From Patescibacteria group bacterium (GTDB lineage Bacteria; Patescibacteriota; Patescibacteriia; XYB2-FULL-38-15): 64,000 nucleotides of DNA. Made by a program: the position numbers and the translations under genes. The notes under the pieces were generated by a model, which was given only the letters and a program-made list of their open reading frames with translations, searched no databases and was not told where the DNA came from. The stretch is taken from NCBI GenBank assembly GCA_041650995.1, contig JBAZJZ010000001.1, positions 491,302-555,301 of the forward strand, given 5' to 3'. Shown in pieces: positions 1-56,302 of this stretch (within the stretch, counting starts at the first letter, position 1; every line of letters starts with the position of its first letter).

Positions 1-530
1 CCGGCTGACCGTAAAATTGAACCGAAAGAGAAAGCAAGCTCATCTCGCCGGGCGCGGCGCAAATCCGCTCGGCCACTTCCTTTTGCACCATCACCGTAAT
101 TTCCTCCGGCCGCGGCTCTTCGCTTAAAAATTTTCTAAATACTGCTGACGTAATTTGATATGGGAGGTTGGCGACAATTTTATATTCATAATTTTTAACT
201 CCCAATTCGTCATTGGCAATTTTTAAAATATCCTTTTCCACAACTTCTAAATTTTTTGGGATGTCTAAAATTTCTCCCAATATTTTCGCCATTTTTCTGT
301 CTGTCTCTACGGCCACAACTCTTTTCGCTCGCCCGATCAACTCTGCGGTCAACACGCCAAACCCGGGACCGATTTCCAAAACAGTATCATTATTTTTTAA
401 ATCGGCCGCCTGAACTATACTTTCCAAAACTTCGCGATCTATTAAAAAATTTTGCCCGTATTCCCGTGACGGACGGACGCCGTATTTTTTACAAAGCGAT
501 TTTATTACGGTAAGTGAATATAATTCCATA
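1..530 (-). CDS. rsmA: 16S rRNA (adenine1518/1519-N6)-dimethyltransferase KsgA/RsmA; the C-terminus runs off the window start
   Basis: Minus-strand translation from ATG at 530..528 reads MELYSLTVIKSLCKKYGVRPSREYGQNFLID... The GQNFL motif and the SAM-binding GPG motif are both present. The gene is absent from the ORF track because it is cut by the window edge. Confidence 0.85.
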
Positions 531-542
531 AAAACACATTAT

Positions 543-690
543 CGATGCGGTAGCCGCGGGCTTTAGCCCGCGCTCTATTTGACGACGCAGCCTAAAGGCT
601 GCGACTACCAAAATAAATAATCAATTATCACGGCTGGGGCTACCAAAATTAAATCATTCGCGCCGGTAGCCGCGGGCTTTAGCCCGCGAA
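543..690. repeat. Cluster of REP-like palindromic units. Each is a short GC hairpin (cgcgggc-ttta-gcccgcg or gcagcc-taaa-ggctgc) joined to a G(A/G)CTACC tail, in alternating orientations.
   Basis: There are perfect hairpins at 555-572, 587-602 and 671-688. The GGTAGCC/G(A/G)CTACC tail recurs at 549-555, 603-609, 637-644 and 665-671. The units lie immediately 3' of the transposase gene. Confidence 0.7.
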
Positions 691-1164
691 AATCCAATCA
701 TCAAAATTATACAGTGTAGAGCCCCTAAAAGGATACCCAAGCCAGTCACGCGCCAAACCTTTTCTTTGGACATTTTCCAGAATATATTTAACTTGTTTAA
801 TGATGTCTTCATCTCTTCTTAAAATATGATCGTAAAAATCTTTTTGCCACTTAACGCCAAATTTTGAACACGAAAACCAATAGCCTGATCTTTGCTTAAA
901 TTCCACAATACACTTATACAGATTGGAGGACTCTTGTTTCCCTTCTATCACGAAGTGACAGTGATCGGGCATGAAATAATAAATATGGGCCTCACAACAA
1001 ATTTTTTTTAGTGTGCTTAATAAAATATTCTCTAATTGATTAAAAACATCCGGAGAAACAAAAAACGGTTGTCTATCCTCCAAACAAATTGTGAAAGCGC
1101 AGATTATTTGGCCGATGTAAAGATCCCTTGGTAGCCGATGCTTTCGTTCGTTAATTTTAAACAT
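679..1164 (-). CDS. REP-associated tyrosine transposase (RAYT) / IS200-IS605 family TnpA-like HUH transposase
   Basis: The 161-aa product carries an HUH motif (PDHCHFVIEG) and a downstream Tyr in ...KYILENVQRKGL..., matching the Y1 transposase / Transposase_17 fold. It is flanked on both sides by REP-type hairpins. Confidence 0.7.
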   Translation of the reverse strand: MFKINERKHRLPRDLYIGQIICAFTICLEDRQPFFVSPDVFNQLENILLSTLKKICCEAHIYYFMPDHCHFVIEGKQESSNLYKCIVEFKQRSGYWFSCSKFGVKWQKDFYDHILRRDEDIIKQVKYILENVQRKGLARDWLGYPFRGSTLYNFDDWIFAG

Positions 1165-1183
1165 TGATTGCTCTTTTAACTCA

Positions 1184-1207
1184 GGCTATAAAGCCTGCGG
1201 CTACCTA
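1184..1207. repeat. REP-like hairpin unit (caggct-ataa-agcctg + cGGCTACC) on the 5' side of the RAYT gene
   Basis: It has the same hairpin-plus-GGCTACC architecture as the units at 543-690, so REP units bracket the transposase gene. Confidence 0.65.
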
Positions 1208-1215
1208 TATCAAAC

Positions 1216-2397
1216 CTACATCAACGCGTACAACGCTGTCATCGCCGCGCCCAAAATAAAAAGCGCGACCCAACTATCCGGAAAAAAGAAAAGAACAACA
1301 AGGGCAAGAACACTTACAATAAGTTTTCCTAAAACTAAAGCCATCTGAAGAAAAACAACTGAGTTCATCACACTGGTTTTTTTCGCTTCATCATAGATAA
1401 TCGCCGCGAGCGGAACGCCGACTGTTCGTCTTGAAACCCGATACAGCGAATCAGACATAAAAACGCCGACACCGGAAACCACCAAAACCCTCATAAGCCA
1501 AGTAAAAGCGGTAAAAATAACCCCTATTTTCAAAACCTCGTGCCTTGATTCTTCGTCAGTAATCCTTCCGATGTATAAAGTTAAAATTGTCGCCACAAAA
1601 ACTGAGGCGGAAACTAAAAATCCGATGGAGGCGTAAGCCGGAATCATTAAAAAAATAAAAATTGGCCAAAGGTAGCCAGCCAGATGTTCTTCGCCAAAAC
1701 CAAAATAAGAAAAAAGTCTCCGGCGATTTTCCGGCGCGACGAGCCGCTTCATGGAATCCTTATAAGAAAAAGGCACGGGCACAAATTTTTCCGGAGTGGT
1801 AAGAAGCGGAATGTTTGAAACTAAAATTAAAAAAGCGACGATAATAAATAAAACTTTAAATCCCATGGTCGCGATAACAACGCCGCCAAACGCCGGACCC
1901 AAAATCATAACTATGGAATCGAGCACCACTAAATTGGAAATTTCCCTGCCGCGCGATCCGTCTTTTCCGAAACGGGCAAAATCGGCGTGATAACCAGGCC
2001 AATAAAGAGTTTTTTGGATTGCCAGAGAAATAATCGCGCTTACAATAAAAAACGGGTGATAGGGAATGGCAAATAAAGACAAATAAAAAAGAATTAAAAA
2101 GGGCGTGGAAAAAAGAATCGCGTGTTCGTAGCCGCGGGCCCGGGCAAATTTTCCACCAAGCGGCACTAATAAAAAATACAACGCGTAAACGGCGATGTAA
2201 AAAACTAATATTTTAGATAAAGAAAATCCCAATGTGTAAAGATAAATGGGTTCAAAAACACCAACAGCAGAAATGGCAAAATCCAAAATTGCTGTTGACC
2301 AAAAAAGTTCTTTCAACTCCCGCGCCATGCCGTCGGCGAAATAACGATGAAAAATTTTTTGTAAAAACATCTGATTACGGCTCAATTTACGGCTCAA
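1216..2397 (-). CDS. MFS-type transporter (about 12 predicted transmembrane segments)
   Basis: The 393-aa product is strongly hydrophobic with a periodic TM pattern. A G-x-x-x-A-R-G loop follows TM2, as is typical of MFS transporters. Confidence 0.55.
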   Translation of the reverse strand: MSRKLSRNQMFLQKIFHRYFADGMARELKELFWSTAILDFAISAVGVFEPIYLYTLGFSLSKILVFYIAVYALYFLLVPLGGKFARARGYEHAILFSTPFLILFYLSLFAIPYHPFFIVSAIISLAIQKTLYWPGYHADFARFGKDGSRGREISNLVVLDSIVMILGPAFGGVVIATMGFKVLFIIVAFLILVSNIPLLTTPEKFVPVPFSYKDSMKRLVAPENRRRLFSYFGFGEEHLAGYLWPIFIFLMIPAYASIGFLVSASVFVATILTLYIGRITDEESRHEVLKIGVIFTAFTWLMRVLVVSGVGVFMSDSLYRVSRRTVGVPLAAIIYDEAKKTSVMNSVVFLQMALVLGKLIVSVLALVVLFFFPDSWVALFILGAAMTALYALM

Positions 2398-4553: not shown

Positions 4554-5801
4554 TTATTCTTTATACTCGGCAAGTGTTACTCTCACATCTTTTTCTTCGC
4601 CTTTGTGCAAAACTTTCAAAGTTATTTCATCGCCCGGCTTAGATTTAGCAATTTCCTTGGCTAAAGGATGATCTTCGTCTATTTTTTGACCATTCATTTC
4701 CAAAATTATATCATTCTCAACCAAACCCGCTTTGTCGGCCGGTGAGCCGGGCACTATGGCTAAATCCGTCTGCTTTTGGCCGCGGACAATTAATGCCCCA
4801 TAATCTTTTTCCAATTGATTTTCCTTGGCTATTTCTTGATTAATCAAAACATAACGAACGCCGAGCCATGGCCGAATAATTTTTCCATTCATTTTTACGC
4901 TCTCTATATCCTGCTTGGCCGCATTAATCGGAATAGCAAAACCGATCAACTGTCCTTCCTGGTTCATCGCTGTGTTAATGCCAATAACCTGCCCAGCGAG
5001 ATTCACGAGCGGTCCGCCGGAATTTCCCGGATTTATAGCCGCGTCAGTTTGAAGCGCTTCTTCAATAACCTCTGAACCACCAAGTCGATCACTCGCCACG
5101 ATCCGTCGCCCTATGCCAGAAATTATGCCTTTAGTCACGGCATTTTTATATTCCCCGAGAGAATTACCGATGGCAATAACCGTCTGACCAATTTCAATTT
5201 TATCGGAATCTCCCAATTCCACGGTTGGCAAATCTTTGGCGTCAATTTTTAAGACGGCAATATCCAAAACCGGATCAGTGGCTAAAATTTTCGCGTCATA
5301 TCTTTGATCGTCATTTGTAATAACCGTATATTCCGCCGCTGTGTCTGAGACCACATGTTTATTAGTTAAAATCAACCCATCCGAAGAAATTATAAAGCCC
5401 GTTCCCCCGCCAATTTCCGTTTTGCCCGTGCCGCCACTATTACCGCCCGTGTTTGGCTGCTCAAAACCAAAAGGAAAATTAAAACCAAACAAATCGTAAG
5501 GAAAAGTATTTGAATTATTAATTTTACTTAAATCTTTAGAAATAATTATTGAAACAACGGCCGGAGCAACTTTTTTTACGGCGCTAATTGTTGCCGACTC
5601 CTCAATAACCGCCTGAGTAAACACTCTCTCACTTTCATCGTTTCCGATTACAACGTCTTCACCTAAAAAATTCTTTTGAAACCATGGAACAATATGGCTC
5701 TTACCATAAAGCCCGCCGAGCACACCACCCACTCCGCCAAAAATTAAGCCAACGAGCGCCGCAACAGCAATAATTTTTTGAAAAGATTTATCTTGAAACA
5801 T
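4554..5801 (-). CDS. htrA: HtrA/DegP-family periplasmic serine protease with a C-terminal PDZ domain
   Basis: There is an N-terminal TM anchor, a trypsin-like catalytic core with GNSGGPL around the active Ser, and a C-terminal PDZ-like region. Confidence 0.85.
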   Translation of the reverse strand: MFQDKSFQKIIAVAALVGLIFGGVGGVLGGLYGKSHIVPWFQKNFLGEDVVIGNDESERVFTQAVIEESATISAVKKVAPAVVSIIISKDLSKINNSNTFPYDLFGFNFPFGFEQPNTGGNSGGTGKTEIGGGTGFIISSDGLILTNKHVVSDTAAEYTVITNDDQRYDAKILATDPVLDIAVLKIDAKDLPTVELGDSDKIEIGQTVIAIGNSLGEYKNAVTKGIISGIGRRIVASDRLGGSEVIEEALQTDAAINPGNSGGPLVNLAGQVIGINTAMNQEGQLIGFAIPINAAKQDIESVKMNGKIIRPWLGVRYVLINQEIAKENQLEKDYGALIVRGQKQTDLAIVPGSPADKAGLVENDIILEMNGQKIDEDHPLAKEIAKSKPGDEITLKVLHKGEEKDVRVTLAEYKE

Positions 5802-31546: not shown

Positions 31547-32992
31547 ATGAAGATAAATCTCCTGGAAAAAAATCTAGCGCCAACTCCCAAAAAGGGTCTG
31601 TCTATTTTCTGGAAATCGGCGATTGCCTGCGCGGTTATCGCCCCGCTTTTTTTGGTTCAGACAACTTTCTTAAAAGGAAATTTCAATCCCTTTTTAAAAA
31701 TTGGCGCGGCGCTGCAAACTTTTGAATTTAGCAACATTACCGAGTGGGTTAGCCAGATTGGAAAGTTAATCAGAAGCGAAGATAAAATTTTAAATGGAGA
31801 AAAAGACGGCCGAATAAATTTTTTACTGCTGGGCATGGGCGGGGCGGGACACGATGGCGCGTATCTTACCGACACAATGATTGTTGCCAGCTTCCAGCCC
31901 AAAGAAAAAAAAGTTGCCATGATTTCCATCCCCCGCGATTTAGCTGTTCCCATGTCTGGCTACGGCTGGCGGAAAATAAATAATGTTAACGCTTTTGCCG
32001 AAGCCAAAGAAAAAGGCAGCGGCGGTGAAGCTGCTATGGCGGTTGTAAGTGAAGTATTGGATATTCCTATACATTATTATATACGAGCCGATTTCCAGGG
32101 CTTTGAAACTTTAATTGATAAACTGGGTGGAGTTTCTGTATATGTTGACCGATCTTTCACTGACTACAAATATCCGACTGCCGACGAAAAATATCAAACT
32201 CTTACCTTTGAAGAAGGCTGGCAAACAATGGACGGCGATACGGCTTTAAAATTCGTCCGCTCCCGCCATGGCACGAATGGCGAAGCATCAGATTTCGCTC
32301 GAAGCAGGCGCCAGCAAAAAATTCTCGTGGCCTTAAAAGAAAAAATTCTTTCTTTCAGCACACTTTTAAATCCCATTAAAATCCAAAGTATTTTTGACGC
32401 AGTAAAAAATTCCATTGATACAAATATGGAAATGTGGGAAATTGTGCGAATGAGCCACTTGGCGCGCGACGTTGATACGGAAAAAATTATCCATCAAGTT
32501 TTAACCGCCGATCAAGAAGGACTGCTTGTGGCCGCGAACATTGACGGCGCCTATGTCCTGGAACCGCGGGCGGGAAATTTCAGTGAAATACAATTTTTAG
32601 TAAAAAATATTTTTAATGTCGCCTCTGAAATAAATTTTGAAGATAAACCCAAACCAACTTACCTTGAAATTCAAAATGGAACAAAGATAGCTGGCTTAGC
32701 TTCACGCACTGCTGAAATGCTCAAAAAATTTGATTACAAAATATCAAAAGTAAGTAACGCCGCCGAACAAAACCATGAAAAGACCATTATTTACGATCTG
32801 ACCGAAGGGGCAAAAAATGACAACCTGAATTTTTTAAAAGAAAAATTAAACGCTGAGGTTTCTCTTTCTATTCCCTCATGGCTTACAAATTCAACTACTC
32901 CTGGAGAAATCGCCCTTTTTGATTCTTCTACAACGGCGGCAAATAATTCAACTGACTTTTTAATTATCCTTGGTAAAAACGTCACTTTCTAA
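31547..32992 (+). CDS. LytR-CpsA-Psr (LCP) family cell-envelope phosphotransferase
   Basis: There is an N-terminal TM anchor. The LCP core motif region reads YLTDTMIVASF...ISIPRDLAV. Confidence 0.8.
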   Translation: MKINLLEKNLAPTPKKGLSIFWKSAIACAVIAPLFLVQTTFLKGNFNPFLKIGAALQTFEFSNITEWVSQIGKLIRSEDKILNGEKDGRINFLLLGMGGAGHDGAYLTDTMIVASFQPKEKKVAMISIPRDLAVPMSGYGWRKINNVNAFAEAKEKGSGGEAAMAVVSEVLDIPIHYYIRADFQGFETLIDKLGGVSVYVDRSFTDYKYPTADEKYQTLTFEEGWQTMDGDTALKFVRSRHGTNGEASDFARSRRQQKILVALKEKILSFSTLLNPIKIQSIFDAVKNSIDTNMEMWEIVRMSHLARDVDTEKIIHQVLTADQEGLLVAANIDGAYVLEPRAGNFSEIQFLVKNIFNVASEINFEDKPKPTYLEIQNGTKIAGLASRTAEMLKKFDYKISKVSNAAEQNHEKTIIYDLTEGAKNDNLNFLKEKLNAEVSLSIPSWLTNSTTPGEIALFDSSTTAANNSTDFLIILGKNVTF

Positions 32993-32998
32993 ATAACC

Positions 32999-34360
32999 AT
33001 GAAATTTACTGTTGCTATTGTTGGCCGAGCCAACGTGGGAAAATCAACCCTCTTTAATCGCCTGCTTGAACGGCCGAAAGCAATTGTCTCCCCCCTGGCC
33101 GGAACAACTCGCGATCGAAATTACGGTCAAGCTCGTTGGCGCGGCCGTGATTTTGAAGTTGTTGATACCGGCGGTCTGGAAGCTGCGGAATTTTTTTCTG
33201 GAGGCATAAAAAAACAAGTGGATATTGCCATCCAAAAAGCCGACCTGGCGCTTTTTTTGGTTGATTTAAAAGATGGCCTTATGCCTCAAGACCGCGCCAT
33301 CGCGAAATTTTTAAAAAAATTAAAAAAACCTGTTCTCCTGGTTGGCAACAAAGCTGATACACCGAAACTTTTTGACGAAGTAGAAAATAAAGAATGGTTA
33401 AAACTTACTTTCGGAAAACCCCTGGCCGTTTCCGCCGCGAATGGCGCCGGAACGGGAGATCTGCTTGATAAAATTTTTAAATTTTTAAAAAAAGAAAAAT
33501 TTGACGAAAAAACACCTGAAGAAATCTCCGCCGTGACACCGATTAAAGTGGCAATTGTGGGAAAACCAAACGCCGGAAAATCTTCGCTTCTAAACTCACT
33601 TTTGGGAGAAGAGAGAGTTCTCGTCAGTGAAGTTCCTTTTACCACCCGCGAACCGCAGGATATGATTTTGCTTTATCGAGATCAACCATTTCTTTTAATT
33701 GACACTGTGGGAATGAGAAAGAAGGCGCGAATTGATCCTGGCTTGGAAAAAGTTGGTGTCCGAAGAAGCATTGCCGCCCTGGATCGGGCTGATGTTATTC
33801 TTTTTATCACTGAAGCTCAAGAACAAATGACCTCGCAAGATAAACATCTCTCCGAATTGATTTTAGAAAAAAATGCCGGTCTCATCATTGTTGCCAATAA
33901 ATGGGATTTGGTAAAAAAAGAAGGACCGAAAACCATGAATCTTTTTGTGGACTACTACCATCGCTTCTTCCCCTACCTCGATTGGGCGCCCGTCGTTTTT
34001 GTGTCGGCGAAGACCGGAGAAAAAGTTGGAAAAATTCTTGACCTTGTTCTTGAAATAAAAAATAAGAGAGAAAAATTTATCAAATCTGAAGATTTAAAAA
34101 AATTTCTAAAAGAAACTTTAGCCAAGCACTGGACAATTATTCATCGCCGAAAAAAATCCGGCGCGGGCGCGCGGCCAAAACTAATCAATCTTGTCCAGGA
34201 AGGGATAAACCCCCCGAAATTTCATCTCGTCACTACTTCTAAAGCAGAGCTGCCTGAAGGTTTTATAAAATTTATTGAAAAAAAATTCCGCGAACGTTTT
34301 GATTTTACCGGCACGCCAATAAAATTGGGCGTAAGACATATCAAAAAAAATAAAGAATAA
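32999..34360 (+). CDS. der: Ribosome biogenesis GTPase Der (EngA), two tandem GTPase domains
   Basis: Two P-loops (GRANVGKST and GKPNAGKSS) are followed by a KH-like C-terminal domain. Confidence 0.9.
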   Translation: MKFTVAIVGRANVGKSTLFNRLLERPKAIVSPLAGTTRDRNYGQARWRGRDFEVVDTGGLEAAEFFSGGIKKQVDIAIQKADLALFLVDLKDGLMPQDRAIAKFLKKLKKPVLLVGNKADTPKLFDEVENKEWLKLTFGKPLAVSAANGAGTGDLLDKIFKFLKKEKFDEKTPEEISAVTPIKVAIVGKPNAGKSSLLNSLLGEERVLVSEVPFTTREPQDMILLYRDQPFLLIDTVGMRKKARIDPGLEKVGVRRSIAALDRADVILFITEAQEQMTSQDKHLSELILEKNAGLIIVANKWDLVKKEGPKTMNLFVDYYHRFFPYLDWAPVVFVSAKTGEKVGKILDLVLEIKNKREKFIKSEDLKKFLKETLAKHWTIIHRRKKSGAGARPKLINLVQEGINPPKFHLVTTSKAELPEGFIKFIEKKFRERFDFTGTPIKLGVRHIKKNKE

Positions 34361-34367
34361 TAATTTT

Positions 34368-34940
34368 ATGAAAATTATTGTCGGCCTGGGAAATCCTGGG
34401 GAAAAATACGAGAACACGCGGCATAACGCTGGCTTCTTTATAATTGAAAATTTAAAACTAGAGAATGAAAATTTTTCCGGATGGAAATTAAATAAAAAAT
34501 TCAACGCGGAAATTTCCGAAGGAAAGATTGGCGGGGGAAAAATTGTTTTGCTAAAACCCCTCACTTTTATGAATAACTCTGGACAAACCGTTGCCGCCGC
34601 CGCGCATTTTTACAAAATAAAACCGGATAATATTTTAGTAATCCACGACGACATCGATTTGCCGCTCGGGAAAATTAGAGTAAAAAAAGACGGGTCGTCT
34701 GGCGGCCACCGCGGCGTGGAATCGATTATTACGGCGCTCAATTCGGAAAATTTTTCCCGATTAAAAATCGGCGTCGGACCAAAGGAACGTCCAAAAAATT
34801 TTGACGCGGCAAATTTTGTTTTAAAAAAATTTAGCAAAAGCGAAGAAAAAACCGCCGGCGATATTACCAAAAAAGCAACCGAGGCGGTCGCTATGATTTT
34901 GGCCGAGGGAGTTAGCGCGGCGATGAATAAATTTAATTAA
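34368..34940 (+). CDS. pth: Peptidyl-tRNA hydrolase
   Basis: The N-terminus reads MKIIVGLGNPGEKYENTRHNAGF. Confidence 0.9.
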   Translation: MKIIVGLGNPGEKYENTRHNAGFFIIENLKLENENFSGWKLNKKFNAEISEGKIGGGKIVLLKPLTFMNNSGQTVAAAAHFYKIKPDNILVIHDDIDLPLGKIRVKKDGSSGGHRGVESIITALNSENFSRLKIGVGPKERPKNFDAANFVLKKFSKSEEKTAGDITKKATEAVAMILAEGVSAAMNKFN

Positions 34941-34953
34941 AAAAATAATCCCG

Positions 34954-34990
34954 CAGTACTGCGGGATACCAAAATTTTTAATTTTTCGTT
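34954..34990 (+). terminator. Rho-independent terminator (CCCGCAGT/ACTGCGGG perfect palindrome followed by a T-rich stretch) after pth
   Basis: An 8-bp perfect stem is followed by ATACCAAAATTTTTAATTTTT. Confidence 0.6.
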
Positions 34991-35262
34991 TTTAACTTTT
35001 AATTTGAGGAGTGTGACGACGATTTTGTCCGTAACACTGCCTGCAAGCGTAAAGTCTATTCCGAAAACGGAAAAAACTTTAACTTATGGTTACTTGCTAG
35101 ATCAGGAGGGGTGATCATCGCGTTCACCGCTCACAGGCAGAGGCACAAACACAATCTCAAATATCTTGATATCTTAACAGAAATTGCTGTTTTTTGTCAA
35201 GACTCAAGCTTCGAGATTTTACAACGGTTTTCATACTCTATCTGGAAATAAAATATCCTTCC

Positions 35263-36363
35263 ATGAACTCCCAAGACGACTTAAAATACTGGGTCGCTAT
35301 CTCCAAATATCCGAAAATTGGCGCAATCCGCCTCATGAAACTTTTTAATTTTTTCCATTCCATGAAAGAAGCCTGGGCGGCTTCTTTTTCTGATCTGCGA
35401 AGAGCCGGACTTGATGAAAATATTATCCATGATTTTCTGGCTCAAAAAATGATCATTAATCCTGACGCTGAATGGGAAAAGCTGGTTAAAGAAAACATCT
35501 CCATCCTAACAATAAACGATCCCGGATATCCAAAATTACTAAAAGAAATCTGGAATCCGCCCGCGATTTTATATGTTAAAGGCACTCTACCGGCTGATGA
35601 TGAATTTAACTTAGCCGTTGTTGGCACAAGAAAAATTAGCACATACGGCCGACAATTAACCTCACTTTTAACCGGCGAATTAGTACAAAATGGTTTTAAT
35701 ATTATAAGCGGCCTGGCTTTGGGAGTTGACGCGCTTGCCCATCAAACAACCGTGCGGCTCGGCGGGAAAACCGTGGCCGTGCTCGGTTCTGGCATTGATA
35801 GTGAAAGTATTTATCCAACAGGAAATAGATTTCTGGCTTCGGAAATTATAAAAACCGGCGGAGCCATAATTTCTGAATATCCCCTGGGTACTGTTGCTCT
35901 GCCGGGAAATTTTCCCCACCGAAATCGCATCGTTTCTGGACTCTCTCTTGGCACGCTTGTAATTGAAGCGGCCGAAGAATCCGGCGCCCTAATCACTGCT
36001 CAATGCTCCTTGGAACAAAATCGCGAAGTTTTCGCCGTGCCTGGCAGTATTTTTAACCCCACTTCTGTTGGACCGAATAAATTGATAAAACTGGGTGCCA
36101 AAGCTGTAACGGAAGTCCGCGATATTTTGGAGACACTGAATTTAGTCCAAGCGGCCGATTTTACCCAAAATAAAAAAATTCTCCCCTCCTCCCCAGAAGA
36201 AGAGAAAATTTTATCAAATCTCTCGGCCGAACCGACTCACGTTGATAAGCTTATCGCCGCCTCAGGCCTTGACACAGCCAAAGTTGGTGCTATACTAACC
36301 CTTATGGAAATGAAGGGAATGGTAAAAAATTTGGGCGGAATGAACTATGTGCTCGGCAAATAA
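35263..36363 (+). CDS. dprA: DNA processing protein DprA (Smf)
   Basis: A Rossmann-like DprA core is present (…LAVVGTRKISTYG…GLALGVDALAH…). The likely start is the internal ATG (MNSQDDLKYW...). Confidence 0.8.
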   Translation: MNSQDDLKYWVAISKYPKIGAIRLMKLFNFFHSMKEAWAASFSDLRRAGLDENIIHDFLAQKMIINPDAEWEKLVKENISILTINDPGYPKLLKEIWNPPAILYVKGTLPADDEFNLAVVGTRKISTYGRQLTSLLTGELVQNGFNIISGLALGVDALAHQTTVRLGGKTVAVLGSGIDSESIYPTGNRFLASEIIKTGGAIISEYPLGTVALPGNFPHRNRIVSGLSLGTLVIEAAEESGALITAQCSLEQNREVFAVPGSIFNPTSVGPNKLIKLGAKAVTEVRDILETLNLVQAADFTQNKKILPSSPEEEKILSNLSAEPTHVDKLIAASGLDTAKVGAILTLMEMKGMVKNLGGMNYVLGK

Positions 36364-36439
36364 ACATTAAAAATCAAAAAATAGTTTAGGCCAAAATTAC
36401 TAATGCCTAATTCCTAATTTCTAATAAATGTCCAATGAC

Positions 36440-36459
36440 AAAATGTCTAATGTCTAAAT
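36440..36459 (+). promoter_or_regulatory. Conserved 20-mer AAAATGTCTAATGTCTAAAT about 60-80 nt upstream of topA; a second copy of the htrA upstream motif
   Basis: It matches the reverse complement of 5872-5891 at 19 of 20 positions. TTTGGTCATTT follows in both places. Confidence 0.4.
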
Positions 36460-36519
36460 TTGGTCATTTGAAATTTGGGATTTGTTTAGAAATTAGATAT
36501 TAGAAATTAAAAATTAATT

Positions 36520-38733
36520 ATGAATCTAGTCATTGTCGAATCTCCGACAAAGGCAAAAACTATCAGTAAATTTTTGAGTAAAGACTTCGTAGTTAAGTCT
36601 TCTTTTGGTCATCTTCGCGATCTGCCACAAAAAGAAATGGGCATTGATATTGAACATGATTTCGCGCCCCATTATGTCGTGCCGAGAAAAAATCAGAAGA
36701 CAGTTACTGATTTAAAAAAATCCGCCGCGAAAGCTAAATTCATTTACTTCGCGTCTGACGAAGACCGCGAAGGAGAAGCCATCTCTTGGCACTTAACTCA
36801 AATATTAAAGCCGAAAACCGGACAGGCTCGCCGGATTGCTTTTCATGAAATTACCAAAGATGCGATCTTAAAAGCCCTAGAAAATCCCCGCGACCTTGAT
36901 TTAAATATGGTTGATGCCCAGCAAGCCCGTCGGGTTTTGGATCGCCTGGTTGGCTATGAACTCTCCCCCTTTCTCTGGAAAAAAGTCGCCAAAGGTTTAT
37001 CCGCCGGCCGCGTCCAATCTGTCGCCGTCCGTTTAATTGTTGAACGCGAACGGGAAATTCAAAAATTTGTTCCTGAAGAATATTGGAATATTGAAGGCGA
37101 TTTTCAGAAAGATGATGGTAAGGAAAAATTTTCCGCGAAATTGAATAAAATTAATAACAAAGTTTTAGAAAAATTTTCAATTAAATCAAAAAATGAAGCC
37201 GATAAAATTTTAAAAGATTTGGCAGGTCGGAATTATCGCGTGGTCAATATTGAAGAAAAAGAGACAAAACGCACTCCCCCGCCGCCTTTTATCACTTCAA
37301 CCTTGCAACAAGATGCCAACCGCCGTTTAGGTTTTTCGGCGAAACAAACAATGCTCATTGCCCAACAATTATACGAAGGTGTGGATTTAGGCAACGAAGG
37401 TTCGGTTGGTTTGATTACCTATATGAGAACTGATTCAGTCAATCTCGCAGAAAAATTTCTGTCTGAATCGCGAGCATTCCTTAAAAAATCTTTTGGCGAA
37501 AAATATTTGGCTCCGAGTTCGCGGCGCTTTACAACCAAATCAAAACTCGCGCAAGAAGCTCACGAAGCAATACGCCCGACCGACGCCGCTCGCGATCCAG
37601 AATCCGTCCGGCCTTATTTAGATGATCACCAATTCAAACTTTATAATCTGATCTGGCGGCGGGCTATGGCTTCGCAAATGTCCGACGGGGCGCTTATTGG
37701 CACAGCTATAGACATTGAAGCAGAAAAATCCAGCGCAAAAATTTCTTATACTTTCCGCGCCAACGGCTTGACTATAAAATTTGATGGCTTCTTAAAAGTT
37801 TATGGCACAAGCCAAGAAACAATTTTACCTGTTTTCAAAATAAAAGAATTATTGGAATTATTAAAGTTAAATCCGAATCAGCATTTCACCGAACCGCCGG
37901 CCCGATATTCTGACGCTTCGCTTGTCAAAACGCTTGAAGAATATGGAATCGGCCGGCCATCAACTTACGCCCCAACAATTTCCACAATTATTGATCGCGG
38001 TTATGTTGAAAAAATTGAAGGACGAAGATTAAAACCAACTGAAATTGCCTTCACGGTGAACGATTTATTGGTGGAACATTTTCCAAATATTGTTGATTTT
38101 AAATTCACGGCTCGCATGGAAGACGACCTGGACGAAATTGCCGAAGGAAAAAAGAAATGGGTCCCGGTAATTAAAGAATTTTATATGCCATTCAAGGAAA
38201 ACCTTGACCAAAAATACAAAGATGTCAGCAAGGCCGAAGAACCGACTGAAGAAGTTTGCGAAAAATGCGGATCGCCTATGGTTATTAAAACGGGACGTTA
38301 TGGAAAATTTTTAGCTTGCAGCGGATTTCCCAAATGTCGAAATATCAAATCGCTCAGCGGCCAAACTGACGGCGGCCCGGCCGAACCGGAAACAACTGAC
38401 GAAGTTTGCGACAAATGCGGCGCGCCCATGGTCATAAAACACGGACGCTTCGGAAAATTTTTATCTTGTTCAAAATATCCTGAATGTAAAAACATGAAGC
38501 CGCTCGTGAAGTCCACGGGCGTTGCCTGCTCCGAATGTGGCAAGGGAGAAATTGTGGAACGGCGTTCAAAGAGAGGAAAAACTTTCTATTCCTGCAACCG
38601 TTATCCTGACTGTAAATTCGCTCTCTGGTCAAAACCGACCGGAGAAAAATGTCCAAAGTGCGGAAGTTTATTGGTCTACGGAAAGGGCGACACCGTTACT
38701 TGTTCCAGTAAAGAATGCGATTATAAAAAATAA
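36520..38733 (+). CDS. topA: DNA topoisomerase I with C-terminal Zn-ribbon repeats
   Basis: A Toprim N-terminus is followed by the topo IA core and four C-terminal Cys4 ribbons (CEKCGSPMV...CSGFPKC). Confidence 0.95.
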   Translation: MNLVIVESPTKAKTISKFLSKDFVVKSSFGHLRDLPQKEMGIDIEHDFAPHYVVPRKNQKTVTDLKKSAAKAKFIYFASDEDREGEAISWHLTQILKPKTGQARRIAFHEITKDAILKALENPRDLDLNMVDAQQARRVLDRLVGYELSPFLWKKVAKGLSAGRVQSVAVRLIVEREREIQKFVPEEYWNIEGDFQKDDGKEKFSAKLNKINNKVLEKFSIKSKNEADKILKDLAGRNYRVVNIEEKETKRTPPPPFITSTLQQDANRRLGFSAKQTMLIAQQLYEGVDLGNEGSVGLITYMRTDSVNLAEKFLSESRAFLKKSFGEKYLAPSSRRFTTKSKLAQEAHEAIRPTDAARDPESVRPYLDDHQFKLYNLIWRRAMASQMSDGALIGTAIDIEAEKSSAKISYTFRANGLTIKFDGFLKVYGTSQETILPVFKIKELLELLKLNPNQHFTEPPARYSDASLVKTLEEYGIGRPSTYAPTISTIIDRGYVEKIEGRRLKPTEIAFTVNDLLVEHFPNIVDFKFTARMEDDLDEIAEGKKKWVPVIKEFYMPFKENLDQKYKDVSKAEEPTEEVCEKCGSPMVIKTGRYGKFLACSGFPKCRNIKSLSGQTDGGPAEPETTDEVCDKCGAPMVIKHGRFGKFLSCSKYPECKNMKPLVKSTGVACSECGKGEIVERRSKRGKTFYSCNRYPDCKFALWSKPTGEKCPKCGSLLVYGKGDTVTCSSKECDYKK

Positions 38734-38838
38734 TTTTCCCCTCCTGCCTGAGGAGGGGTTAGGGGTGGTGGGAGAAAAACATAATAGGACACAAAAAACA
38801 CCTCGGCCTCCGCCGGGTGTTTTTATTATAATCAAAAT

Positions 38839-39138
38839 TTATCTAAGTTCTTTGAGCTGTGATAGAGCCTGGCTCAACGCTGTAGTTAATTCTTCCAAGC
38901 CACTGATCAATTTTCGCTTTTTTTCTTCACTGTCTTTCTCTCTTTCGACAACGTTCATCAACTTCTCAAGACTGCCCTGATGGCGAATTAATATAGCCAG
39001 GGATTCCGTTGCTTCTTCCGGAGAAAAACCAAACCTATCTCCCCCGTGTTCAAGAATCCATTGCTGATCTCTTAGCGCCCGCATTTTTTCTTTACCGCCC
39101 TCCTCCATTATAACTGGAGACTCTCTGCCCTCTGTCAT
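38839..39138 (-). CDS. Hypothetical acidic 99-aa protein
   Basis: The ORF is flanked by hairpin terminators. No recognisable motif was found. Confidence 0.4.
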   Translation of the reverse strand: MTEGRESPVIMEEGGKEKMRALRDQQWILEHGGDRFGFSPEEATESLAILIRHQGSLEKLMNVVEREKDSEEKKRKLISGLEELTTALSQALSQLKELR

Positions 39139-39476
39139 AAATTTAAAAAATTAATAATTAATTCCTCCACTTCCTATAGTACTCTCTCTGATTTTGTCAA
39201 AAATAAAAAAGACAGGGCCGAGACGGACCGTAACCCCTAAACCTATGGTGATGCTAGGGTGGTTGCTCGGACCCCGCCAATTTTATTAAAACATAAAAAA
39301 GAATAAAAATAAACACCCCGCCTTGCGGCGGGGTGTTTTGATTTGGGGTTGGTCCTCTATTTCACGAAGTGGAACAAAGGACTTACCTAGCATCACAAAG
39401 ATATCATAGCATAGTTTCTGTCATTTTGTCAAGGGTTATTTACAAATTCCCCGTTTTAATCTAAAATTAATTTGTT

Positions 39477-40958
39477 ATGATAACGATTGACGATTTAATC
39501 CAAAAAATTAAATTCTACGCGCCAAATGCCGACCTAGATTTGGTGCGCTTAGCTTTTGATTACGCCAAAAAAGCGCACAACGGACAAAAGCGACTTTCCG
39601 GCGAACCATATATTAATCACCCGCTTGCCACGGCCATGAATTTAGCGGAAATGAAATTACATCAAGATATTATCATCGCCGGTCTCCTGCACGATATCCC
39701 CGAAGAAACTCGTCCGGAAAACCCGGAAATCTCTATCCGAGAAATAAAACACAACTTTGGCGAAGAAGTGGCTTTCATGGTCCGCGGAATTACTAAACTA
39801 GGAAAAATAAAATATCGCGGCATGGAACGGTATTTAGAAAATTTGCGCAAAATGTTTATAGCTATGGCCGAAGATGTCCGAGTGATTTTCATCAAATTCG
39901 CTGATCGGCTGCATAATTTGGAAACGCTTGAAGCCCAGCCATCGGCAAAACAAAAACGCATTGCCATGGAAACAATGGAAATTTATGCCCCAATCGCAAA
40001 CCGTCTCGGTATGGGTGAAATAAAAGGTCGTCTCGAAGATCTATCTTTTCCCCACCTTTATCCTAAAGATTTTGAAAAATTAAGAAAAGAAGTTGCGCCG
40101 CGCTACAAAGCCAAAGAAGAATATTTGAAAAAAATAAGGGTAAAACTTTTAAAAACCATTGCCAATTTTTCTTTAGGCGCACCAGGAGAAAAGAGCAGTG
40201 AACAGCGGATTAAAGTTTATTCGATCCACGGCCGAACCAAGCGTCTTTGGAGTATACATAAAAAATTACAGCAAAAAGGATATGACGATCTTTCAAAAAT
40301 TTATGATTTAGTCGCCCTTCGAGTGATTGTGGAAACAGTGGCTGAATGCTACACGGTCTTGGGTATTATTCACCAATTATGGAAACCATTAAAAGGACGC
40401 ATCAAGGACTATATCGCTCAACCAAAACCAAACGGCTATCAATCTCTTCACACTACAGTTTTTTGCGATGACGGTGAAATCGTGGAATTCCAAATCAGAA
40501 CGAAAAAAATGCACGAAGAAGCCGAATTTGGTATTGCTTCGCACTGGTATTATGACGAAAAAGGATCAATGCCCGTTGCAAAAGATTTAAAATGGGTTAA
40601 AGAACTGACAAGGTGGAAAAAAGAATTTGAAGAGAATCAAAGATATTTAGAATCTTTAAAAATTGATGTTTTCCAAAACAGAATTTTTGTTTTCACGCCA
40701 AAAGGCGATGTTATTGATTTACCAGAAAATTCCACGCCGGTTGATTTCGCCTATACCCTACACTCTGATCTTGGAGACAAATGCGCTGGCGCTAAAATTA
40801 ATGAGCAAATGACAAAACTTGATACAAAATTACAAAGTGGCGACGTCGTGGAAATTATAATTGATAAAAATAGAAAAACTCCTTCGTCCGATTGGCTGAA
40901 ATTTGTAAAAACCAACGCCGCCCGGCATAAAATTAAAAGCCGACTGAAAACAAAGTAA
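39477..40958 (+). CDS. (p)ppGpp synthetase/hydrolase, RelA/SpoT family (HD + synthetase + TGS domains; no ACT domain)
   Basis: An HD motif is present (GLLHDIPEE). The synthetase region reads …DLVALRVIV…, and a TGS-like region follows (VFTPKGDVIDLPENSTPVDFAY). Confidence 0.85.
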   Translation: MITIDDLIQKIKFYAPNADLDLVRLAFDYAKKAHNGQKRLSGEPYINHPLATAMNLAEMKLHQDIIIAGLLHDIPEETRPENPEISIREIKHNFGEEVAFMVRGITKLGKIKYRGMERYLENLRKMFIAMAEDVRVIFIKFADRLHNLETLEAQPSAKQKRIAMETMEIYAPIANRLGMGEIKGRLEDLSFPHLYPKDFEKLRKEVAPRYKAKEEYLKKIRVKLLKTIANFSLGAPGEKSSEQRIKVYSIHGRTKRLWSIHKKLQQKGYDDLSKIYDLVALRVIVETVAECYTVLGIIHQLWKPLKGRIKDYIAQPKPNGYQSLHTTVFCDDGEIVEFQIRTKKMHEEAEFGIASHWYYDEKGSMPVAKDLKWVKELTRWKKEFEENQRYLESLKIDVFQNRIFVFTPKGDVIDLPENSTPVDFAYTLHSDLGDKCAGAKINEQMTKLDTKLQSGDVVEIIIDKNRKTPSSDWLKFVKTNAARHKIKSRLKTK

Positions 40959-42732: not shown

Positions 42733-42816
42733 TAAACTGACGCCGATGTGGCGGAACTGGCATACGCGTGCGACTCAAAATCGCATTCCCTTACGGGATT
42801 GTGGGTTCAACTCCCA
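42733..42816 (+). tRNA. tRNA-Leu (anticodon CAA), long variable arm; CCA not encoded
   Basis: It folds by hand: acceptor GCCGATG/CATCGGC, anticodon loop CTCAAAA, a 14-nt variable arm, and T-loop TTCAACT. Confidence 0.75.
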
Positions 42817-42876
42817 CCATCGGCACTTTGACAAAATATTATATATTAGTTATTCTAATATATAATATAAAATTAT

Positions 42877-42951
42877 AGCGGGGTGGAGAAGTAGCATCTC
42901 GCCTGGCCCATAACCAGGAGATCGCCGGTGCAAATCCGGCCCCCGCAACCA
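42877..42951 (+). tRNA. Initiator-type tRNA-Met (anticodon CAT) with non-canonical features
   Basis: It aligns to the bacterial tRNA-fMet consensus (GCGGGGTGGAG...CCCATAACC...AAATCCGGCCCCCGCAACCA) with an unpaired 1:72 position. It also has C33 in place of U33, and a D-loop lacking the GG dinucleotide. Confidence 0.6.
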
Positions 42952-43036
42952 AAAAATAATTGAATTATATAAAGCCGGGTTTGTAGGAAAGGGGTCGGGA
43001 AAACGTAGTTTTCCCGATTTGCGGAAATATTAAAAC

Positions 43037-43090
43037 CGCGGGGTTTTAAAGAGCGAGGCGATAAATCCGGCCCCCGCAACCAAGTTTTTT
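43037..43090 (+). repeat. Truncated duplicate of the initiator tRNA (5' CGCGGGG stem plus the 3' 20 nt AAATCCGGCCCCCGCAACCA)
   Basis: There is an exact 20-nt repeat of the tRNA 3' end 115 nt downstream of the full copy. The D and anticodon arms are missing from this copy. Confidence 0.6.
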
Positions 43091-43121
43091 TGTCTTTTTT
43101 AAATAAATCCAACGGTAGCGA

Positions 43122-43198
43122 GGCTGGGTAGCTCAGTTGGTTAGAGCGAGGGACTCATAAGCCCTAGGTCGTCGGTTCGATCCCGACCCCAGCCACCA
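43122..43198 (+). tRNA. Elongator tRNA-Met (anticodon CAT; tRNA-Ile2 not excluded)
   Basis: It forms a 77-nt cloverleaf with a G1-C72 pair, anticodon loop CTCATAA and T-loop TTCGATC, and CCA is encoded. Confidence 0.8.
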
Positions 43199-56224: not shown

Positions 56225-56265
56225 CCCAATTCCTTGGGTACAAAAAAACGGCGGAGGATTCCTCC
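56225..56265 (-). terminator. Rho-independent terminator (GGCGGCGGAGGAGG-AATC-CTCCGCCG + TTTTTTTG on the minus strand) after recO
   Basis: A perfect GC-rich hairpin is followed by a T7 run on the minus strand. Confidence 0.7.
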
Positions 56266-56302
56266 TCCGCCGCCCCCTTTCAACGTTCTGAAATTGAGTT
56301 TA

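Follow-up and report, generated by a model that had tools for sequence, protein, structure and literature searches.

RAYT Proteins and Their REP Sequences

Insertion sequences of the IS200/IS605 type are multicopy elements with co-oriented subterminal hairpins, often accompanied by tnpB. REP-associated tyrosine transposases (RAYTs) and their REPs have, to our knowledge, been studied almost entirely in proteobacteria. In these hosts, the RAYT/REP systems have been described as vertical, lineage-specific partnerships that occur preferentially in larger genomes (PMC5581495, PMC6006769, bioRxiv 10.1101/2021.07.10.451892). The published pattern for the gene is that of a single copy kept in a fixed extragenic slot and inherited by vertical descent (PMC5581495; bioRxiv 10.1101/2021.07.10.451892). 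REPtrons in species without dispersed GTAG repeats have also been reported (PMC3733652).

In the REPtron of E. coli K-12, which comprises TnpAREP (YafM/RayT; PDB 4ER8) together with Y and Z2 REPs and BIMEs, residues W94, Q95, E100, H101 and R104 have been reported to contact the GTAG head of the repeat (PMC6006769). The motifs by which RAYT proteins are recognized are W[QE], a downstream [ED]H..R that contacts GTAG, and Y-x3-N-P (PMC6006769). On the side of the repeats, a REP flanking such a gene is a hairpin that carries a 5' GT[AG]G head at its foot, and a REPIN is a doublet of inverted REPs whose arms pair into one long hairpin. Di Nocera et al. 2013 describe 24 families of GTAG-tagged REPs, arranged as HH, TT or HT dimers. 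Patescibacteria are not among the host phyla named in the abstract and two sections of that paper, and a literature search joining RAYT terms with Patescibacteria or CPR terms gave no linking paper among the 10 results listed.

The window analysed here is a stretch of 64,000 nucleotides (64 kb) from a 567-kb contig of a Patescibacteria genome. Close to its start lies a region that can be identified with high confidence as a REPtron, that is, a single-copy RAYT (TnpAREP) gene within a small cluster of cognate REPs. For the window itself this is an ordinary element, and the initial annotation, made from the sequence alone, had interpreted it rightly. The wider interest of the locus could come from the near-identity of its REP across phyla and from the apparent absence of a dispersed REP population in a streamlined genome.

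The RAYT Gene and Its Predicted Product

The RAYT gene, of the TnpAREP-like HUH-Y1 kind, occupies positions 679..1164 on the minus strand and is apparently intact. The initial annotation had pointed to a 161-aa ORF with an HUH motif (DHCHFV) and a downstream tyrosine; both are found within this ORF of 161 aa, as MPDHCHFVIEG and as KYILEN with Tyr127. The key residues are H68-C-H70 (HUH), W106 and Q107, D112 and H113, R116, the catalytic Y127, and N131. The proposed assignment to the RAYTs also holds, since the best NCBIfam model is NF047646 (REP_Tyr_transpos), with 66.8 bits, and the suggested search for a Y1_Tnp domain gave a Pfam match of 30 bits, above the cut-off of 23. The NF047646 score stays below the 80-bit equivalog cut-off, which points to a divergent subfamily rather than to a different family. 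A protein of identical sequence has been recorded as 'transposase' of a Patescibacteria MAG, and several homologues are already labelled RayT by JGI.

Comparison with the E. coli protein supports the same assignment. While the RAYT alone matches 4ER8 weakly (22.9 bits, E = 5e-4), a profile built from 47 homologues matches it with 46 bits (E = 3.6e-11). In the alignment to 4ER8, H68-C-H70 falls on the HUH motif and Y127 on the catalytic tyrosine, and all of these are invariant in the 47 homologues. The counterparts of E. coli W94, Q95, E100, H101 and R104 are W106, Q107, D112, H113 and R116, and that of N119 is N131, four residues after the tyrosine. W106, Q107, D112, H113, Y127 and N131 are likewise invariant in this set, R116 is at least 90% conserved, and every invariant column of the family alignment is kept in this RAYT. 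The motifs specific to RAYTs are present as WQKDFYDHILR and YILEN. The family consensus of the latter is YILxNP, and residue 132 is Val here, in place of the Pro of the NP that is found in the family as well as in every RAYT subclass described. The alignment thus shows a predicted intact HUH/Y1 enzyme in which the GTAG-contact and catalytic residues of E. coli TnpAREP are conserved.

The two proteins have in common the HUH/Y1 core, the WQ motif, Y-x3-N and the GTAG-contacting residues. They differ in the HuH motif (DHCH here, DHLH in E. coli), in the W motif, given as WQ here and as WE in E. coli, and in the Y motif, YILEN(V/P) here and YIHYNP in TnpAREP. A closer resemblance is found with the RAYTs of Pseudomonas and Xanthomonas, which form Bertels group 3, equivalent to subclass 2.5 of Quentin et al. 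2018. These are of similar size (~151 aa, as against 156-161 aa in this family) and also combine a DHxH HuH motif, WQ, an Asp in the place of E100 and short REPs that form inverted doublets. Nevertheless, they have DH[LF]H instead of DHCH and YI[VI]ANP instead of YILxNP, and their hosts are gammaproteobacteria rather than uncultured phyla. Compared by the motifs of the table in Quentin et al. 2018, the combination DHCH/WQ/YILxNP, with ~157 aa and short REPs, has no exact row there, and subclass 2.5 is the nearest.

It could also be argued that the ORF is the TnpA of an autonomous IS200/IS605-type insertion sequence that moves as a whole unit, with the hairpins as its subterminal ends. This explanation is highly improbable. 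IS608 and ISDra2 TnpA do share the HUH/Y1 fold and the recognition of DNA hairpins in single-stranded DNA (PMC6006769), and the common catalytic fold is apparent in the Y1_Tnp match and in a weak match of the 47-homologue profile to ISDra2 TnpA (22 bits, E ~9e-4). However, the same profile scores 46 bits with 4ER8, and the NCBIfam IS200 model NF033573 gives the ORF 15.7 bits against a cut-off of 55, 51 bits behind REP_Tyr_transpos. The Y motif ends in N (Y-x3-N), in contrast to the Y-x3-Q of IS200 transposases (PMC6006769). In addition, no tnpB-like ORF was found near the RAYT and no further RAYT copy in the window, so that the element, as far as the window extends, is not multicopy. The arrangement of the flanks and the inheritance of the locus, described below, bear on the same question.

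REP Units and Their Layout at the Locus

The gene is placed between an MFS transporter gene upstream (1216..2370, minus strand) and ksgA downstream, which encodes an rRNA adenine dimethylase (1..529, minus strand) and extends past the start of the window. Four complete REP units and one half unit surround it, each complete unit consisting in general of a GGTAGYC head, a GC-rich stem of 6-7 bp and a TTTA-type loop. The count of at least five hairpin units in the initial annotation has to be amended accordingly: four are complete, but the fifth, U3, contains only the head and one arm.

On the strand of the gene, the order is U5 (head, then hairpin), RAYT, U4 (hairpin, then head), the partial U3, the dimer U2/U1, and ksgA. 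U5 (1182-1205, minus strand), with the sequence GGTAGCCG-CAGGCT-TTAT-AGCCTG, lies upstream of the RAYT, 18 nt from its start codon, and has its head directed away from the gene. U4 (665-688, plus strand) has the same sequence as U1 and lies at the 3' end of the RAYT, also with the head away from the gene, and U5 and U4 therefore bracket the RAYT with heads outward. The stop codon of the RAYT (679-681) is located inside the U4 hairpin loop, and the U4 stem encodes the final three codons. Overlap of REPs with the 3' end of a RAYT is among the features described by Di Nocera et al. 2013.

U1 (549-572, plus strand; GGTAGCC-GCGGGC-TTTA-GCCCGC-G) belongs to the GCGGGC stem subtype and is situated upstream of ksgA, at a distance of 20 nt from its start codon. 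U2 (586-609, minus strand; GGTAGTC-GCAGCC-TTTA-GGCTGC-G) belongs to the GCAGCC stem subtype. U1 and U2 constitute the left and right halves of a head-outward (HH) dimer at 549..609, which resembles a BIME or REPIN. Its two units are inverted and of different stem subtypes, as in BIME Y/Z pairs; they are separated by a spacer of 13 nt, with a GTAG head-to-head distance of 58 nt and, over 24 nt, 79% complementarity between the arms. The partial unit U3 (629-644, minus strand; GGTAGCCCCAGCC) is a head and one stem arm without a hairpin. Since U3 and U2 have the flank CCAAAAT in common, U3 looks like a remnant of a local duplication. A single-stranded DNA fold of 540-700 pairs the identical palindromes of U1 and U4 with each other and, for this reason, is uninformative on the U1/U2 dimer.

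This layout, with two stem subtypes in alternating orientation, is BIME-like and supports the REP/BIME array in both orientations that had been proposed for the locus, with a GTAG head at the foot of each GC hairpin and the same organization at the loci of homologues (80/80, see below). It recalls the E. coli REPtron, in which a single-copy, chromosomally fixed gene (background in PMC6006769) likewise stands between inverted GTAG-headed hairpins and two REP subtypes alternate in orientation. The REPs described here are short, with a perfect stem of 6-7 bp and a 4-nt loop, while those of E. coli are long and bulged. In this respect, they are similar to the GTAG-tagged REPs of Di Nocera et al. 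2013, for which a terminal GTAG beside a stem of 6-9 bp, a predominance of HH dimers, and some families common to distant species are described. The unit GTAGCCGCAGGCTTTAGCCTGCG was likened to the 24 families by these described features. For the insertion-sequence explanation, hairpins on both sides of the RAYT gene would be expected, and they are present; but the flanking units are inverted, not co-oriented as in IS200/IS605, and they carry a GTAG head.

It can scarcely be maintained that the hairpins serve the neighbouring genes as ordinary terminators or as stem-loops that stabilise mRNA, and happen to lie beside a transposase-like ORF. U1 does score terminator-like on the plus strand, and a secondary action of REPs at the RNA level is known (PMC3733652). 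Nevertheless, the three local genes all run on the strand opposite to that terminator-like site, and a promoter and terminator scan of 400-1400 gave sites no more numerous than in shuffled sequence. Furthermore, the same headed hairpin occurs at all 80 homologue loci considered below, and its unpaired GTAG head is conserved, although a terminator could dispense with it.

Apparent Confinement of the Repeat to the RAYT Surroundings

GGTAGCC is present 8 times in the 64-kb window, where 2.5 copies would be expected; none of 100 shuffles gave as many as 8. Of the 8 copies, 5 fall within 549-1205. The exact 13-nt pattern of head plus arm finds the four complete units only, and there is no head-joined hairpin elsewhere in the window. 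According to the initial remark, the GC-rich palindromes stand out sharply in an AT-rich genome; the window, with 41.8% GC, is only moderately AT-rich.

Two further matches in the window were considered as REPs and rejected. The GGTAGCC at 1130-1136 encodes R-L-P of the N-terminal HRL motif of the RAYT, in which H and R are invariant and L is at least 90% conserved. The near-match CGTAGCCGCGGGC at 2127-2139 falls within GKFARARGYEH, a conserved motif of the MFS gene, where comparison with the orthologues reveals no inserted sequence. As both are in conserved codons, they are regarded as chance matches.

The source genome was searched over 82 kb of the 567-kb contig (the window together with L001 and L207), and these 82 kb contain no REP unit apart from those of the locus, which is a difference from the E. 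coli REPtron with its dispersed copies. In the 82 kb read, the REP population of this small genome appears to be confined to the surroundings of the RAYT. The dispersal expected by the initial annotation, which is the 'repetitive' side of the REP definition, therefore fails for this part of the source genome, but the same REP family is dispersed in many other genomes.

Pairing of Protein and Repeat at Homologue Loci

The association between this protein family and its repeat was examined on JGI metagenome contigs, which were scanned with the family alignment. At least 402 relatives were confirmed, and 80 loci with 44-60% amino acid identity were kept. GTAG-headed GC hairpins are located within 300 nt of the RAYT homologue at 80 of the 80 loci, with the unit consensus GTAGCCGCAnnCTTYAGnnTGCG. 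Beyond 300 nt of the gene, the mean at homologue loci is 0.27 units per kb. Heads-outward is the commonest arrangement of the nearest units (28 of 80 loci), and the heads stand at median distances of 39 and 37 nt from the gene. Many of these loci also display two stem subtypes in alternating, BIME-like orientation.

The stem of the unit is supported by covariation. In a set of 99 distinct units, chosen solely on head and loop so that structure did not enter the selection, and scored over a 7-bp stem, the covariation score was 0.407, compared with 0.143 +/- 0.014 in shuffles (0 of 500 shuffles reach 0.407). Cells changed on both sides number 109, against 38 expected. Sliding the partners abolishes the signal, except in the +1 register, which corresponds to the 5-nt-loop class.

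At one of the loci (L176, 1533-2054), three REP units lie inside a RAYT homologue match that is ~55 nt longer than usual. This may represent a REP insertion into the RAYT gene, as described for subclass 2.4 (PMC6006769).

Vertical Inheritance and Local REP Turnover

The locus was compared with two further genomes, L203 (P0002) and L204 (P0004), in which the order epimerase-MFS-RAYT-KsgA is common. The slot MFS-RAYT-KsgA is the same in these two and in the source genome. At the amino acid level, the RAYT is 88% identical to its orthologue in L203 and 69% to that in L204, in comparison with 91% and 73% for MFS, 82% and 66.5% for KsgA, and 76% and 59% for the epimerase. The divergence of the RAYT tracks that of its neighbours and, by this sequence comparison, its inheritance is to be read as vertical within the sampled lineage. 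The dN/dS of 0.14 against the 88%-identical orthologue (L203) shows, as estimated from the aligned codons, a RAYT under purifying selection. The occupation of the same slot in three diverged genomes, with divergence in step with the neighbours, is a further argument against an autonomous insertion sequence. The locus fits the single-copy, fixed-slot, vertical-descent pattern of RAYTs.

In contrast to the REP sequence, which is kept among the three genomes despite near-saturated synonymous sites, the number of REP units varies. The source genome has one unit upstream of the RAYT, and downstream of it three that are complete and one half unit. L203 has three upstream and three downstream, and L204 has more units still, one of them beyond ksgA. 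These differences in unit number show local REP turnover at the RAYT locus. A head-outward unit is found at the place equivalent to U5 in both orthologous loci, and the overlap that puts the stop codon in the hairpin loop, as at U4, is also present in L203.

The Repeat Family in Other Genomes

An exact-pattern scan was carried out on one genome per GTDB species, and the figures given here are those of the matches listed, which comprise at least 120 stretches. At least 138 units were found in these species-representative genomes, among the matches listed, 127 of them being perfect hairpins. The dominant variant among the matches listed is GGTAGCCGCAGGCTTTAGCCTGCG, to which compensatory variants are added. 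Near-identical 24-nt units occur in at least ~87 assemblies whose record names span ~20 phylum-level groups, again among the matches listed; these include Nitrospirota, Desulfobacterota, Planctomycetota, Acidobacteria, Omnitrophota, Aerophobetes, Firestonebacteria and Patescibacteria. Even a distant RAYT match is present in only 1 of 120 blocks among the matches listed, which indicates that the units in these blocks are dispersed and do not flank the gene. Head-outward dimers account for 42 of the 56 neighbouring pairs in the same set; their outer distance is most often 51-57 nt, compared with 58 nt for the U1/U2 dimer of the window.

Intergenic GTAG hairpins were also seen in other Patescibacteria MAGs (L074, L089 and L093). 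In L074 (JBDRLV01), three types of GTAG-headed hairpin are distributed over three intergenic gaps, at 2014, 3762 and 5436-5646, and no RAYT was found in the 8-kb block. The presence of these hairpins in a block without a RAYT suggests that CPR genomes can host dispersed REPs of several families.

The breadth of this distribution raises the question of how the family spreads. It has to be considered that the REPtron family is transferred horizontally between phyla as a unit and that the Patescibacteria copy is a relatively old, fixed import and not an ancient system of vertical descent; this is a serious possibility, to which we give somewhat less than an even chance. The 24-nt unit is almost identical in the at least ~87 assemblies and ~20 named phylum-level groups mentioned above, and homologues whose source is named as Zixibacteria, WOR-3 or Stahlbacteria are 56-58% identical to this RAYT. 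A patchy distribution and horizontal transfer of tnpAREP have likewise been inferred in PMC6006769 and PMC5581495. However, the pattern within the sampled lineage is vertical, and no plasmid, phage or integrase context was seen adjoining the RAYT. Binning errors in MAGs may inflate the taxonomic breadth, and strong constraint exerted by the protein on its binding site could equally hold the REP sequence constant. A horizontal origin is plausible; it concerns where the element came from and is compatible with its identification as a REPtron.

A more far-reaching proposal goes beyond the REPtron as such. According to it, the motif combination DHCH/WQ/YILxNP (~157 aa) would define an undescribed RAYT subclass, and a REP nearly unchanged across ~20 named phylum-level groups would reflect repeated cross-phylum transfer of the RAYT-REP pair, with purifying selection acting on a gene that stays in a fixed slot of streamlined Patescibacteria genomes in which no dispersed REP population is evident. 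This composite proposal is tentative and, on the whole, doubtful. If it were true, the RAYT would be maintained by selection for something other than the upkeep of a genome-wide REPIN population.

Proposed Activity of the REPtron

The preferred identification of the region remains that of a REPtron. Elements of this kind are already known; the RAYT gene of this one looks domesticated. By analogy with E. coli TnpAREP and IS608, the RAYT would bind the hairpin in DNA exposed as a single strand, as at the replication fork, then read the GTAG head and cut beside the unit, with Tyr127 forming a 5'-phosphotyrosine link. On the same models, rejoining of the DNA would lead to the duplication, deletion or movement of REP units, and not of the RAYT itself.

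The locus adds an intact, selected REPtron in an ultra-small Patescibacteria genome. The finding of a RAYT family and a near-invariant 24-nt REP under ~20 phylum-level names would make the question of vertical or horizontal transmission testable on a wider taxonomic scale. There is also a gain for annotation, as the repeat family GTAGCCGCAnnCTTYAGnnTGCG can be named together with its cognate protein family.

Other Features of the Window and Its Surroundings

Several features unconnected with the REPtron were observed. At 56249-56272 of the window, CGGCGGAGGA-ttcc-TCCTCCGCCG forms a GC-rich hairpin with a perfect stem of 10 bp; it has no GTAG head and is unrelated to the REP family. One tRNA-Leu(CAA) gene is clustered with two for tRNA-Met(CAT) at 42742-43198; the central gene of the three (42877-42951) was called by ARAGORN and not by Rfam at the gathering score. 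GC skew is negative throughout the window except at 32-40 kb, where it is about zero and AT skew turns positive; this change at 32000-40000 is probably due to a gene block encoded on the opposite strand.

Outside the window, ~1.2 kb beyond its start, a small ORF with the PF05635 domain (23S_rRNA_IVP) is present in L001 (12365-12754). Another PF05635 23S_rRNA_IVP ORF, with a weak bAvd match, lies at 5138-5527 of L204. The 23S_rRNA_IVP ORF is followed by a giant ORF, of 2781 aa in L001, and this pairing is kept in the syntenic L204.
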